Part shown: positions 2,202-49,754 of the stretch, piece by piece
How positions within the stretch are numbered: the first letter of the stretch is position 1
How the letters are laid out: each line of letters opens with the position of its first letter
Assembly: GCA_963737905.1 (NCBI GenBank)
Contig: CAVTUQ010000012.1
Span: forward strand, 1 to 64,000
DNA: 64,000 nt
DNA from: an uncultured delta proteobacterium
Lineage (GTDB): Bacteria; Desulfobacterota; Binatia; UBA9968
Reading direction: 5' to 3'
Position numbers and translations under genes: made by a program
Notes under the pieces: model-generated
What the model was told of the DNA's origin: nothing
The model's database searches: none
Seen by the model: only the letters and a program-made list of their open reading frames with translations

Positions 2202-3089
2202 ATGGCTGATGAAAACTTCCACGGCGTCTTTCCCTATCTCGTGTCCCCCATCGATTCCACCGGCGAGGTCAAGGCGGATGTATTAGCACGACTGTGCGAC
2301 GATCTCATCAACGCAGGCGTTCACGGCTTGACCCCGCTGGGTTCGACGGGTGAGTTTGCCTACCTTTCATGGTCACAGCGAAAGCGCATCGTGGAGGTCG
2401 TCTTAGGAGCGGCGCGTGGCCGGGTGCCGGTGGTTGCCGGGGTCGCTTCGACGACCATCGCCGACGGAGTCGCGCAGGCGCGGGAGTTTGAGGTCCTTGG
2501 CTGCCAGGGCATTCTCGCGATCCTGGAGGCTTACTTTCCAATTTCAGATGAAGGTATCTTCGAGTATTTCAAAGCGATCGCCGGGGCGGTTTCGCTTCCA
2601 GTGGTGCTATATACCAACCCGACCTTTCAGCGTTCGGACTTGAATCTTTCCGTGATTGAGAGACTCAGTCATGTGCCGAACATTCGCTATATTAAGGACG
2701 CCTCTTCCAACACCGGACGCCTGCTTTCAATCATCAACCAGGTGGAAGGCCGGATGAAAGTCTTTTCCGCCTCGGCTCATATCCCGGCCTGCGTGATGCT
2801 CATCGGCGGAGTTGGCTGGATGGCCGGACCCGCTTGCGTTGCGCCGCGTCAAAGCATTCAGCTCTACGAGTTTTGTCGACGAGGCGACTGGAAGGCGGCT
2901 ATGGAACTTCAACGACCGCTCTGGAGCCTGAACCAGGCGTTCGCAAAATATAATCTCGCCGCGTGCATCAAGGGGGGGCTCGAGCTTCAGGGATATCCCG
3001 TAGGCGGTCCGCTACCGCCGCAGGCGCCGCTCCCGCCTGAGGGGGTCGAAGCCGTAAGGCGGACGCTAATCGCTACCGGAGCGCTGTAG
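2202..3089 (+). CDS. Dihydrodipicolinate synthase/NAL-family class I aldolase
   Basis: GSTGEF, LYTNP, YIKDAS (Schiff-base Lys); substrate unknown. Confidence 0.85.
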
Positions 3090-3342
3090 CGCAACCGAAG
3101 CCCACAAAAGAATTCAGAAGAGGCGTTCACGCGGAGGACACAAGAAGTACTCCGACCTCCTTGAGTCTGCGCCGAAGGGTGGGAATCACGGGATGTTCGG
3201 AGTGGCCTCTGCTAGAGACGGTGGTGGATGACCACTCAAAATCCCGGAGTGTTTCGATTGCAAGTTTGCGACTTCCGGGAGGAAATTTTTTCAAGAATGC
3301 GAATTTGTTGAATATGAATGAAGCAAAATCGCGGCATTCGGG

Positions 3343-4957: not shown

Positions 4958-5875
4958 ATGTATACGAAAATTCTGGTACCGCTAGATGGATCCGCAGTGG
5001 CCGAACAGGTTCTGCCCTACGTTCGCACCCTGGCGAGCGGACTTAAGATCCCGGTAGAACTCATGGGGGTCGTGGACATGGCACAGTTCGACTCCCATAT
5101 AGCTGCAGAAAAGGGGCGGTACCTCGATACCCTGATAGAAGACAGCGTCCGCTGCAGTAGAGAATACCTGACGGGAGTTGCTCAGACATTTTCCGGTGCT
5201 AAGGTCAGCTTTGCGGTCGAGAACGGCGGAGCCGCGGAGGTTATCATCGCGAAGGCAGGAGCGGACAAAGAAACGCTTATCGCCATGGCAACGCATGGTC
5301 GTTCGGGAATTAACCGGTGGTTATTGGGAAGCGTGGCAGAAAAGGTTTTGCGGGGTTCGGCTAATCCGCTGCTTCTGGTTAGAGCCAAAGCCGAGACCAA
5401 AGCGGCAGGAGCGGCGACCCTGAAATCCATCGTGGTGCCGCTGGACGGCTCCGAGCTGGCGGAGGGTGTGCTGCCGGCGGTTCTCGAAATCGCAAAGAAA
5501 CTGAATATGGAAATTGTTTTGTTCCGCGCTTTTAGTGTTCCCTATAGCGTCTTTGGCGGCGTAGGTGAGCACATTGCGATTGTTGATGAATTGCTTGGGG
5601 GGATAAAAGCAGAAGCTCGCGACTATCTCGAGAAGCAAACTGAAGAACTGAAGAAGCAGGGAGCTAACAAGGTTTCCTATGTTCTAGAGCAAGGTTACAG
5701 TGCAGATCAGATCATTTCGTTGGGCCGCAAAACCCCTGAGAACCTGATCGCCATGTGCACACATGGGTGGTCGGGCGTAAAGGGTTGGGTGTTGGGTAGT
5801 ATTACCGAAACGGTGGTGCGCCACTCCGGCGATCCGGTCTTGATCATTCGTGGCCAGTTGATGCCGGGATTATGA
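4958..5875 (+). CDS. Universal stress protein, tandem USP domains (paralog of upstream gene)
   Basis: Same motif architecture, clear similarity to 4028-4927. Confidence 0.93.
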   Translation: MYTKILVPLDGSAVAEQVLPYVRTLASGLKIPVELMGVVDMAQFDSHIAAEKGRYLDTLIEDSVRCSREYLTGVAQTFSGAKVSFAVENGGAAEVIIAKAGADKETLIAMATHGRSGINRWLLGSVAEKVLRGSANPLLLVRAKAETKAAGAATLKSIVVPLDGSELAEGVLPAVLEIAKKLNMEIVLFRAFSVPYSVFGGVGEHIAIVDELLGGIKAEARDYLEKQTEELKKQGANKVSYVLEQGYSADQIISLGRKTPENLIAMCTHGWSGVKGWVLGSITETVVRHSGDPVLIIRGQLMPGL

Positions 5876-46131: not shown

Positions 46132-47862
46132 ATGACAGAAGACACTATTCATTCTCAGCTCCCCCGCCCGGTGGACTATAGATCCACCGCTTATTTCTCG
46201 ATGGAAATAGGAATAGAGGACGGGATGCCCACCTACAGCGGCGGTTTAGGTATTCTCGCCGGGGACACCATTCGCGCTGCTGCTGATCTTAACGTGCCAA
46301 TGGTCGGGATGACGCTCCTTCATCGCAAGGGTTACTTTTACCAGCGGCTGGATTCAAACGGCAGGCAGACGGAAGAACCGGTTGAATGGGTGGTGGAAGA
46401 TTTCTTAACTGAAATGGCACAGCGAGCCGCCGTCGCCATCGAGGGGCGTGTCGTTCAGTTGCGCTCGTGGAAGTATGAAGTGTCGGGCAATGGAGATTTC
46501 AAGGTGCCGGTCTATTTTTTGGATACCGACCTGCCGGAAAATTCTGAGCGGGACCGAACTTTGACCCACTATCTTTACGGGGGCGATCAGCACTACCGGC
46601 TTTGCCAAGAAATGATTCTCGGTATCGGCGGGGTGAAGATGCTCCGCTCCTTGGGCTACGACCAAATCCGGCGGTTCCATATGAACGAAGGGCACTCCAG
46701 TCTCCTTGCGATCGAGTTGTTGGATGAGGAGGCTCAACAGAATGGTAGGGAATCCATCGTCCAGGCCGACATAGAGGCAGTGCGAAAGAAGTGCGTCTTT
46801 ACAACCCATACGCCGGTGCCTGCGGGTCAAGATAAGTTTCCCTTGGATCTTGTGAATCGTGTTCTCAGTCGCCGTGAGGTTGGCGAGATGCGCGACGTCT
46901 TTTGCTGCGGTGATCTGTTGAATATGACGTATCTGGCTCTGAATCTCAGCCATTATGTCAACGGCGTAGCTAAGAAGCACGGTGAGATATCGAGGCTCAT
47001 GTTTGCCGGTTACACTGTGGATGCGATCACGAATGGTGTTCATGCTGAGACATGGGCCACAGATTCATTTTCGCAACTTTATGATCATTACATACCGGGC
47101 TGGAGAAAGGACAATTTCAGCCTTCGTTACGCATTCGGTATTCCTAAAGAGGAGATTTGGCAGTCGCACGCGAAGGCAAAGAAAAAGTTGGTTCAATTTG
47201 TTAACCAGGAGACCAATGCCGGCTTGGACGTCGATCTATTGACCCTGGGCTTTGCACGCCGCGCTGCGGCCTACAAAAGGCCGGATCTGCTCTTCACAGA
47301 CATCGAGCGGCTGAAACAGATCGCAGCCAAAGTCGGCCCTGTGCAGGTCGTATATGCCGGGAAGGCGCATCCGCAAGATTCGGCGGGCAAGGAACAGATC
47401 CAACGAATATTTCGCGCCAAGGAGTCGCTTCGGAACGATATCAAAATTGCGTATCTTCAGAACTACAGCATGGAGCTTGGAAAGACGATGACCTCAGGAG
47501 TCGATATTTGGCTAAACACGCCACAACCTCCTCTCGAAGCGTCCGGAACGAGTGGAATGAAAGCAGCCGTGAACGGTGTGCCGAGTCTGAGCGTCTTGGA
47601 CGGCTGGTGGATCGAGGGTTGTGTTGAAGGCGTAACAGGTTGGTCGATCGGGCCAACGGACGGACCGGCCGCTGCTGCAGTCGAGGAGCACTCTAGGGAC
47701 GCGGCTTCGCTTTACGACAAACTCGAACAAGTTATTTTGCCGCTGTTTTATAAGAATCGTGATGGATTCGTCGATGTGATGCGGTACGCCATCGCGCTGA
47801 ACGGTTCGTTTTTTAATACCCACCGGATGCTGCAGCAATATGTTTTGAAAGCGTATCTATGA
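46132..47862 (+). CDS. glgP: Alpha-glucan (glycogen/maltodextrin) phosphorylase
   Basis: [43 protein letters not shown] motif. Confidence 0.93.
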
Positions 47863-47940
47863 GTTACGCACGATGAAAGAATGATCGAAGGCTTTGACCG
47901 GGTCTATCAGATGGCGGACGGCCGGATCACCAATCATTGA
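47863..47940 (+). pseudogene. C-terminal remnant of ABC ATPase (LolD/MacB-like)
   Basis: VTHDERMIEGFDRVYQMADGRIT: H-loop plus terminal DGRI; no start codon. Confidence 0.6.
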
Positions 47941-47956
47941 TTGGAGATGAGGAAAA

Positions 47957-48133
47957 ATGTTTATGCCCGACTGGTTGTGGTTCATTGCGTTCTTCGCAGT
48001 ATACATCGTGTTGATGCGTTGGGTACTCCCGCGCCTGGGCGTGCCTACCTGAATGGCGAATTCGTGTGATGTCGAGTCTCGACGCAAAGGTGCCGGTAAC
48101 GGCCACGATCTTAAACGAAAGATAGAGAAATGA
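47957..48133 (+). CDS. Candidate small membrane selenoprotein (58 aa, UGA at 48050-48052)
   Basis: MFMPDWLWFIAFFAVYIVLMRWVLPRLGVPT-U-MANSC...IEK; SECIS-like hairpin TGTCGA-GTC-TCGACG; final stop overlaps tsaA ATG. Confidence 0.65.
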
Positions 48134-48612
48134 ACGACGTAAAATTCAAACCCATCGGGCTTGTGCATACGAAGGGCAGCGACGCCGAAGTCAGGGAAAA
48201 AGGGAACCTGGAGGGAGAACTGGAGATCTATCCTGAATTCGAGGAAGGTCTTCAAGGGATTGACGGCTATTCACATCTCTTTGTATTGGTCTACTTCGAC
48301 CGCCTCCGGCCGGAACAGATCGGCCCTTTACAGGTAAAGCCGCGCGGGCTCTTGAGAAGAGGTTTCAAATTGGAAGAGCTGCCGCTGCTTGGCGTTTTCG
48401 CTTTGGATTCTCCCACGCGGCCCAATCCCATCGGACTTTCGCTCGTGCGTCTCATCAAACGAGAAGGAAACCGGCTTTTCGTGCAGGGTTTGGACTTCTT
48501 CGACGGTACGCCGATTCTCGATATCAAAGGTTACCGGCCGCAATATCGTACCGACAGTTACGTCATGCCGGATTGGTTTCGCACTTTGGCCGACGACAAA
48601 GGTTACGTCTAA
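48130..48612 (+). CDS. tsaA: TrmO/TsaA (YaeB)-family SAM-binding methyltransferase
   Basis: PIG, GIDGYSHL, GVFALDSPTRPNPIGLS, GLDFFDGTPILDIK. Confidence 0.88.
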   Translation: MNDVKFKPIGLVHTKGSDAEVREKGNLEGELEIYPEFEEGLQGIDGYSHLFVLVYFDRLRPEQIGPLQVKPRGLLRRGFKLEELPLLGVFALDSPTRPNPIGLSLVRLIKREGNRLFVQGLDFFDGTPILDIKGYRPQYRTDSYVMPDWFRTLADDKGYV

Positions 48613-48718
48613 GACATCTCCGCCAGAAGATTTCGCAGGATTGCAAAATTTCAATTTCATTTTCCTCAATAGTGGGAAGATCCATCCTTTAATGGTCGGA
48701 AAGGTTGTGACGTGAAAC

Positions 48719-48733
48719 TGGTATGTCTCTTGC
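48719..48733 (+). promoter_or_regulatory. sigma54 promoter
   Basis: TGGTATGTCTCTTGC. Confidence 0.6.
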
Positions 48734-48786
48734 TGCTCTAACTTCTGAGAGAAGCATTCTGCCAGTGAGTCGGAGAGGAGCGATCC

Positions 48787-49754
48787 ATGTCTACAGAAGT
48801 TAGAACCGAAATATCACCGATCCAACGGAGACAAGAGCTGATAGAAAAATACTGGGCGGGGGATATGGCCCGCAAAGTCTATCTAGTGCGACATCAACGC
48901 AAGGCGATTTTGGCACACTGCCGGCGCATCGCCGTAATCGGCGCAAGCGGTGATCCCGATAGCGAGAGCTATGTCAGTATGGAAAAACTGTTAGGACTGG
49001 GCCTTGAGATCATCCCAATTTTTTCAGGCCGTGAAAGTTTTCTGGGGCTGCGCTGCTACTCTCGTTTGCGCGATGTGCCCGGCAAGATCGATATCGTGCA
49101 AGTTTATCCCGGCGGGCGGATAAATTTAGCTAGAGCTGGCTCAGGAGGCAGTCGACAAGGGTGTGTCCACCTTCTGGATTGAAAAGGGAATGGCGGCTTC
49201 CACGAGAGGTCGAGGACATCCTTTCCAACGGTAAAGTTCAGTTGGTGGAGTACGAGAGCTTGGAATCGGAGTATTTGAAACATACTCCCATGATCCCGAG
49301 CGCGGTGCCGGTCCGCAAGGAAAAGAAGACGGTGAAGGTCAAGGAGCGGATGACCAGAAATCCTACCGCGGTCACACCCGAGGAGGCTCTCAAGGATGCC
49401 GTATGCAAGATGGAGCGCGGCCATTTCCGCCATCTGCCGGTGGTCGATAACGATGGGAAATTGATCGGCATGCTTTCTGACCGCGATATCCGCCTGATTC
49501 GCCCCTCTCTGGCATTCGTCGGCAAGGAAGACGCCGGGGTTCAGCTCTGGTCCCTCGCCGTGCAGCAAGCTGCGGTCTTCGATCCGATTTCGGTGAAGCC
49601 GGAAACAACCCTCAAGGAAGCGGCTGAGCTGATGCTGCGCTGGCACGTGGGTGGTCTCCCGGTCGTTGATAATGAAGATAAACTCATTGGCATTATTACC
49701 TATACCGATTTGTTACGAGATTCTGTTGGATCTCAGCAAAGTGATCGTCCGTGA
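48787..49754 (+). CDS. CoA-binding (YccU-like) + CBS-pair fusion, frameshifted near 49130-49190
   Basis: RRIAVIGAS, CYSRLRDVPGKIDIV; then FRHLPVV...SDRDI, VGGLPVV...TYTDLL. Confidence 0.72.

Follow-up and report, generated by a model that had tools for sequence, protein, structure and literature searches.

A putative membrane-anchored selenocysteine micropeptide of an undescribed family encoded upstream of trmO in an uncultured Binatia bacterium

SELENOK and SELENOS are short selenoproteins of the eukaryotic ER membrane, which possess one N-terminal helix and a disordered, charged cytosolic tail with a single selenocysteine (Sec); their Sec is located near the C-terminus and their SECIS element in the 3' UTR. 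The gene described here recalls them in the predicted architecture of its product, but no sequence relationship was found (no Pfam match), and its Sec would be placed at the membrane interface; the two are alike in working at most and do not belong to the same family. The YgaP-like DUF2892 proteins (PF11127) are also small membrane proteins with a conserved Cys beside a basic stretch of the L-R-K-L-G-V type, and in some acidobacterial loci of the present family their genes are close to those for rhodanese and DUF302; these proteins, however, have two helices. A homology to DUF2892, suspected from a likeness of motif, was rejected (no Pfam match at E <= 10; hhalign probability of 0.6%).

The bacterial SECIS (bSECIS), whose prototype is the element of Escherichia coli formate dehydrogenase, is modelled in a 2026 review with a loop of 3-9 nt, an upper stem of 4-16 bp, a G in the first two loop positions, a UGA-to-loop distance of 16-37 nt, and a minimum free energy <= -7.5 kcal/mol (PMC13188914). 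The element found here is likewise an in-CDS stem-loop just past the UGA, in which a 3-nt loop beginning with G-U tops an upper stem of 4 bp or more and lies 23 nt from the UGA; unlike the prototype, it is very small (6 bp, -4.4 kcal/mol), and extra lower pairs are needed to reach -7.5 kcal/mol. The initial annotation had compared it with the apical loop of E. coli fdhF, and this likeness would be limited to the G-U start of a small apical loop.

Several short or membrane proteins with Sec in a Cys-rich motif have been listed for prokaryotes, including OS_HP3 (dual-CXXC), CYCXC, KCU-star/DUF466, TsoA (LULAxC), the MerT-like protein, and the SO_0444 transporter; according to the same source, they are mostly known only from computation, and none has a single helix followed by U-x4-C (PMC13188914). 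The Pfam and NCBIfam models available for them gave no match to the peptide encoded here. No single-helix U-x4-C family appears in the 2026 table of 119 prokaryotic selenoprotein families and subfamilies (PMC13188914), and nothing similar is mentioned in the accessible parts of deep-Sep (PMC12013277) and BSepDB (PMC13326102). The full-text literature searched contained no description of such a family, which may be listed as an unnamed hypothetical in the supplementary tables of the surveys. Searches of the PDB sequences, ESM Atlas, Pfam, and NCBIfam returned no informative relative, in line with the earlier statement that the peptide fits no characterised family: Pfam gave no match at E <= 10 to the peptide or to its Cys forms; none of the NCBIfam selenoprotein models (TsoA NF045695, OS_HP3/DW NF041197, DG, DF, GOS_B, GOS_C, and others) matched the read-through peptide; seven of eight Cys forms had no NCBIfam match and one matched at chance level (E 0.085-0.17); and the truncated 31-aa form gave chance-level NCBIfam matches only (E 0.7-1.0). 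Very probably, the gene represents a genuine selenoprotein family not yet described, with recoding by the ordinary bacterial mechanism.

The window, i.e., the whole stretch of 64,000 nucleotides that was analysed, comes from an uncultured bacterium of the class Binatia (contig CAVTUQ010000012.1). We consider it very probable that positions 47963-48133 constitute a genuine Sec-encoding gene of this undescribed family, which is widespread in soil bacteria, and the gene product is most likely, as predicted from the sequence, a 56-residue single-pass, membrane-anchored selenocysteine protein (Table 1). The initial annotation had proposed that a hydrophobic helix is encoded from ATG 47957, that an in-frame TGA at 48050 is followed by an open frame up to the TGA at 48131-48133, and that this last stop overlaps the start of tsaA (trmO) as ATGA; each of these observations was reproduced, and the proposed length of 58 residues had to be corrected. 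The alternative start ATG 47957, which would add Met-Phe to the product, is ACG in a genome of the same genus, while the M-P-D-W start is conserved among homologues and the 29-aa ORFs called in public databases begin at MPDW, i.e., at the second ATG (47963). Since the conserved start is 47963, the product has 56 residues rather than 58. A further ATG (48053) stands directly after the TGA, in the frame that remains open to the terminal stop.

Table 1. Features of the putative selenoprotein gene and its surroundings in the window
Feature	Coordinates	Strand	Remarks
Putative selenoprotein gene	47963..48133	+	56 codons including the Sec codon, plus stop TGA 48131-48133
Shine-Dalgarno-like purine run	47943..47952	+	GGAG 47943-47946 and GAGG 47949-47952; 5' of both candidate starts
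Predicted transmembrane helix, residues 3-24 (numbering from ATG 47963)	47969..48034	+	AlphaFold2 model
In-frame UGA, predicted Sec, residue 30	48050..48052	+	TGA in 75/80 loci, Cys codon in 4/80
Conserved M-A-N-S-C after Sec	48053..48067	+	Cys35 codon TGT 48065-48067
SECIS-like hairpin	48070..48084	+	Stem 48070-48075/48079-48084, loop GUC 48076-48078; UGA to loop 23 nt
Charged C-terminal tail, poorly conserved	48085..48130	+	pLDDT 51-53; pN/pS 0.71
trmO (tsaA)	48130..48612	+	TIGR00104 107.3 bits (cut-off 93.25), PF01980; ATG overlaps the selenoprotein stop (ATGA)

A glucan-phosphorylase-like gene ends upstream at 47862, and no sigma-70-like promoter or terminator was found between the phosphorylase gene, the selenoprotein gene, and trmO. 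A six-frame motif scan of the assembly (G000) recovered only the copy in the window, and a weak match on contig C28 was rejected as spurious. Two reverse-strand ORFs, 47857-48255 (132 aa) and 47927-48106 (59 aa), overlie the gene and could mistakenly be chosen over it by a gene caller; they were rejected as genes, as they recur elsewhere only as shadows of the conserved plus-strand gene. Downstream of trmO, the plus strand of the window (48787-49754) carries an ORF with a CoA-binding domain and a tandem-CBS-domain protein; by clustering, CBS proteins are encoded near the selenoprotein gene in nine loci.

The read-through peptide was searched in 41 related genomes, G000 included, with translation continued through stops. 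Eight of the 41 matched at E <= 3.5e-5, each with exactly one TGA within the match and with the alignment continuing beyond it; one of the eight (G014) carries a degraded copy without the helix. Their translations read ...Y-I-V-L-M-R-W-V-L-P-R-L-G-V-P-T, TGA, M-A-[NG]-[SP]-C-x-V-[EG]-S-R-R and then diverge; many synonymous changes were observed 5' of the TGA, and the nucleotides just 3' of it are nearly fixed. Across the family, conservation spans the TGA (…MRWVLPRLGVPT-U-M-[AS]-x-x-C). Named public MAGs (one-genome-per-species contigs) contained 112 stretches encoding a relative, 80 of which were kept; some of these encode the same peptides as the related-genome matches, so that the two sets overlap. 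The codon at the site is TGA in 75 of the 80 loci and a Cys codon (TGC/TGT) in four (L095, L111, L117, and L122), while one locus (L118) carries a frameshift; TAA or TAG was never found, and the homologues thereby answer the earlier question of whether they end in another stop codon here. The carriers are labelled Candidatus Binatia, Deltaproteobacteria, Thermodesulfobacteriota, Pyrinomonadaceae, Blastocatellia, Bryobacteraceae, Terriglobia, and a few further groups.

In a profile search covering 5.8 billion protein clusters, 1078 of 1265 candidates matched at E <= 0.01, and among the 120 matches listed most are 29-aa ORFs ending in ...GVPT. Of 34 database proteins that were retrieved, 12 stop exactly at ...G-V-P-T, nine of them called as ORFs of 29 to 44 residues; the other 22 are longer and carry Cys (13), Trp (7), Ser (1) or Arg (1) at the TGA site, Cys within ...P-T-C-M-S-G-x-C. 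One of the Trp proteins also reads its own terminal TGA as Trp, so the Trp at the site comes from the gene caller's code and these are TGA genes. Both Cys residues are invariant in all 17 Cys-form proteins. This comparison shows UGA 48050 to be a coding position that is conserved and is exchanged for Cys in some homologues.

The hairpin of the initial annotation is present where it was claimed to begin, 17 nt past the UGA. It has 6 bp with U.G as the outermost pair, and with its GUC loop, its stem length, and its 23-nt spacing it agrees with the first three of the four bSECIS criteria. The energy criterion (-7.5 kcal/mol) is reached in the window only through a 45-nt fold with isolated extra pairs (-9.2 kcal/mol), the perfect stem alone having -4.4 kcal/mol; among the 77 TGA genes that were aligned, the perfect stem alone passes in 37. 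As a single sequence, the window hairpin is weak: its 71-nt fold has z = -0.41, with 63 of 200 shuffles folding equally well, the four criteria together are passed by chance by 76 of 2036 TGA triplets in the window (3.7%), and an Rfam scan of 47000-49000 at E <= 10 returned no match to a SECIS model and three chance snoRNA matches only. Its significance comes from conservation and covariation across homologues. In the alignment of the 77 TGA genes (TGA to +47; eight stacked pairs, columns 19-26 with 30-37), 84% of the stem cells are paired, and pairing falls to 16-45% when the partner is slid by 1-3 columns; both sides have changed in seven of the eight pairs (60 cells), and none of 500 column shuffles reaches any of five hairpin measures. 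Stem variants include GUCGA/UCGAC, GCCGA/UCGGC, GCCGC/GCGGC, UUCGA/UCGAA, and GUUGA/UCAAC, whereas the loop starts with G in 77/77 genes, followed by U in 64 of them and by G in 12. Synonymous divergence is depressed over the hairpin, where pS in a 17-gene acidobacterial subgroup is 0.17 compared with 0.32-0.41 elsewhere. The comparison shows a small hairpin at a fixed distance from the UGA that co-varies and agrees with the model of the bacterial SECIS. Of the Cys forms, L111, L117, and L122 lack the hairpin and L095 keeps it.

The first alternative to be weighed is that the UGA is an ordinary stop, that the product is a helix-only micropeptide of 29-31 residues, and that the downstream part is an RNA element (a restart or stability hairpin) or the relic of a longer gene. 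Gene callers annotate the locus in this way, as the 29-aa ORFs above illustrate, and the strongest downstream conservation lies at the nucleotide level over the hairpin. Furthermore, codon +1 after the TGA is ATG in 71 of the 72 ungapped TGA genes, which resembles a restart, and the tail is barely constrained and evolves almost neutrally, which is a weakness of the case for read-through: in the acidobacterial subgroup of 17 genes, the tail has a pN/pS of 0.71, compared with 0.33 for the part 5' of the Sec codon and 0.29 for codons +1 to +12. However, the Cys-form homologues are continuous ORFs in which C-M-S-G-x-C aligns across the site, and since Met and both Cys residues are kept in the Cys forms, Met +1 is a residue and not merely a restart codon. 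The third base also varies at codons +2, +4, and +5 with the residue kept: in the 72 ungapped genes, codon +2 is Ala or Ser (GCT 16, GCG 15, GCC 13, GCA 5, TCC 13, and TCG 8), codon +4 is mostly Ser from four different codons, and codon +5 is Cys in 66 (TGC 50 and TGT 16). The invariable use of TGA in 75 loci, the loss of the hairpin from three Cys forms, and the lack of a U-tract behind the hairpin, because of which it is not a terminator, also argue against an ordinary stop. We consider this explanation improbable. Conservation past the UGA, which the initial annotation had required of a real selenoprotein, does continue; at least 15 sense codons follow the TGA in all 77 TGA genes (median 25), the deletion in three shortened genes is exactly 6 nt, and the reading frame of the tail survives single-codon indels.

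The Sec machinery, whose lack would have refuted the idea according to the initial annotation, was also identified. Contig C29 of G000 (71024-75669) carries selD (381.4 bits), selB (409.8 bits), and selA (606.9 bits) adjacent to each other and all above the curated cut-offs, and selD itself contains an in-frame TGA. For selC, the best Rfam match in G000 reaches 46.6 bits against a cut-off of 47 and is called tRNA-Leu by ARAGORN, which finds 44 tRNAs in the whole assembly and none for Sec at default or relaxed settings; the candidates from the relaxed setting were not confirmed by Rfam and were discarded, and blastn with the selC genes of relatives gave nothing in G000. Because the assembly is 87.5% complete, this non-detection does not amount to absence; as the 69.5-77.2 kb stretch of C29 contains no tRNA gene, selC is not located next to selD, selB, and selA. 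A tRNA-Sec above the Rfam cut-off is present in four of five gene-carrying relatives, one of the same genus, and ARAGORN also calls SeC(tca). After exclusion of duplicates of the related-genome matches and second loci of the same MAG, selB scores above the cut-off in 43 of 50 TGA-form genomes, and the genome of L074, an additional TGA form, is also positive; among four Cys-form genomes, which may be incomplete, it does so in one. Within the window's own order the co-occurrence has no power, because 36 of 41 genomes have selB whether or not they carry the gene.

The second alternative is that the ORF serves mainly as a selenium-sensing leader, in which Sec insertion brings ribosomes to the ATGA and couples the start of trmO, while the peptide has little function. 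The ATGA overlap occurs here and in the genome of the same genus, and the region between the selenoprotein gene and trmO lacks a promoter or terminator, as described above. The overlap, which the initial annotation took as a sign of the real gene, is nevertheless local and not a feature of the family: TrmO is the downstream same-strand gene in only four of 68 loci scanned, and others are followed by DUF302 (21), acetate kinase (7), P-type ATPase (3), rhodanese (2), and further genes. Moreover, purifying selection acts on the helix (pN/pS 0.33) and on the juxtamembrane motif (0.29), which would be needless for a mere spacer, and W20, L22, P23, G26, and T29 are invariant in 75 sequences, with Sec or Cys at position 30. 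A role as leader is accordingly regarded as very improbable. That the UGA is read by a non-Sec route, i.e., by a near-cognate Trp or Cys tRNA or under a variant genetic code, is the least probable of all and can be given almost no weight, for its support from the seven database proteins with Trp at the site is explained by the caller's code, the next in-frame stop of the 77 TGA genes is TGA in 39 (TAA in 22 and TAG in 16), so that TGA is an ordinary stop in these organisms, and a SECIS-like hairpin and the Sec machinery are present.

With Sec at residue 30 as the preferred reading, the AlphaFold2 model (75-row alignment) predicts the helix of residues 3-24 at a block pLDDT of 84-85, while the remainder has 51-62 and no structure; T29, U/C30, and M31 are conserved. 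A short, acidic N-terminus (M-P-D-W) precedes the helix, and many Arg and Lys residues follow it. According to the positive-inside rule, the basic flank of a helix lies on the cytoplasmic side, and therefore the N-terminus would be outside and Sec30 and Cys35 in the cytoplasm, probably on a flexible loop at the cytoplasmic membrane surface. Of the U-x4-C motif in the initial annotation, the Sec is supported, and the resolving Cys is not invariant: it is replaced by Arg or Gly in six of the 72 ungapped Sec forms and deleted in three more. Since the second Cys is missing in nine of 77 Sec forms, a Sec/Cys redox pair can be neither universal nor essential everywhere.

Transcripts were sought in RNA data, where six libraries contained small shares of the stretch and four were mapped; parts without coverage carry no information. 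A 167-nt contig from a soil metatranscriptome matches 47969-48131 with a single mismatch, running across the UGA and the hairpin, and in a sediment RNA library this part is covered by contigs of relatives; this support is weak because DNA carry-over is possible.

The gene contexts vary widely, and no neighbour occurs in more than about a third of the scanned loci. When neighbours are clustered by blast, 27 of 81 loci contain DUF302, three of them with a Cys form; upstream genes (77 scanned) encode OsmC (8), ABC ATPase (7), phosphorylase (6), ArsR-type regulators (3), and a few redoxin, AhpC or thioredoxin proteins, and some acidobacterial loci also contain genes for YgaP-type rhodanese and MBL-rhodanese besides the DUF2892 genes mentioned above. 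The function of DUF302 is not known, and one report notes it in sox clusters of sulfur oxidisers (PMC5037610). The neighbouring DUF302 proteins lack a signal peptide, and two of their Cys residues, in the motifs G-A-C-N-P and L-P-C-N, are invariant, whereas the only DUF302 gene of G000 is on contig C4, encodes a signal peptide, and is unlinked to the selenoprotein gene. A complex prediction for an acidobacterial Cys-form peptide with its neighbouring DUF302 protein scored 0.00; it was run without controls and speaks neither for nor against binding. The theme of the neighbourhood appears to be thiol, peroxide, and sulfur chemistry, which is not proof of a role.

By analogy with known bacterial recoding, SelB carrying Sec-tRNA(Sec) would bind the hairpin while the ribosome is at the UGA, and Sec would be inserted; failed insertion would release a 29-residue helix-only peptide. 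Sec30 and Cys35 might then form a selenol/thiol pair cycling through a selenenylsulfide, and this pair could serve at the membrane, together with soluble thiol proteins, to reduce peroxides or to relay sulfane sulfur. The candidate partners are neighbours in other lineages, namely the cytoplasmic two-Cys DUF302 proteins, OsmC, and rhodanese. We propose such a membrane-surface redox or sulfur-relay pair tentatively, at somewhat less than even chance; a metal-binding role is conceivable as an alternative. The more far-reaching idea, which we hold to be rather unlikely in its entirety, is that the genes make up the first family of membrane-anchored micro-selenoproteins to be recognised in bacteria (about 45-70 residues; over a thousand sequence clusters, most of them from soil bacteria of the Acidobacteriota and Binatia-like lineages), similar to SELENOK/S in architecture and of independent origin, in which a selenol at the cytoplasmic membrane face would be catalytic and relay peroxide or sulfane sulfur to two-Cys DUF302 proteins, OsmC or rhodanese. 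If this were true, DUF302 would gain its first functional partner.

Annotation misses selenoproteins systematically, and here public gene calls cut a whole family at 29 residues in hundreds of sequence clusters. Were the family recognised, the bacterial selenoproteome would gain a new architecture, in which a single helix is combined with Sec at the membrane interface, and selenium use would be broadened among the Acidobacteriota and Binatia-like bacteria that abound in soil. The family would also provide a concrete, testable peptide for metaproteomics and a lead on the function of DUF302, and it offers gene finders an example of a weak single SECIS that becomes convincing only through comparative covariation.

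Several variants of the gene were also found. The Cys form (TGC) of L095 (3001-3195, plus strand) retains the full SECIS-like hairpin GGCGUCGC-GGC-GCGACGUC, and selB was not found in its genome, which may be incomplete; it seems that Cys has recently taken the place of Sec here, once the Sec machinery had been lost. At L030:1282-1500 (plus strand, genome G014), the helix is replaced by polar sequence and the Cys by Gly, while the TGA, M-A-N-S, and the hairpin-coding part remain, and this copy is probably a degraded pseudogene. The frameshift of L118 (about 3001-3177) lies just 5' of the Sec codon (...L-P-R-L-G-S-H-L-N-G-E-F-L-stop), and an intact copy (L063) is present in the same MAG; it is either a sequencing error or a pseudogene. 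A search for longer or fused relatives gave two matches among 8000 scored candidates, one of which is an N-terminally over-extended call and the other a rhodanese fusion. In the latter (P0127; 205 aa, on one 1870-nt contig), a Cys-form module (helix and ...G-V-P-T-C-L-G-G-G-C) is called as one ORF with another hydrophobic segment and, at the C-terminus, a rhodanese domain (PF00581); either the fusion is natural or two genes share a frame. Finally, several MAGs carry multiple copies of the gene, some of them close together, such as L053 and L070, which are 3.5 kb apart on one contig; L102 contains two copies (3001-3204 and 4969-5166), each followed by a DUF302 gene, the second of which is truncated.
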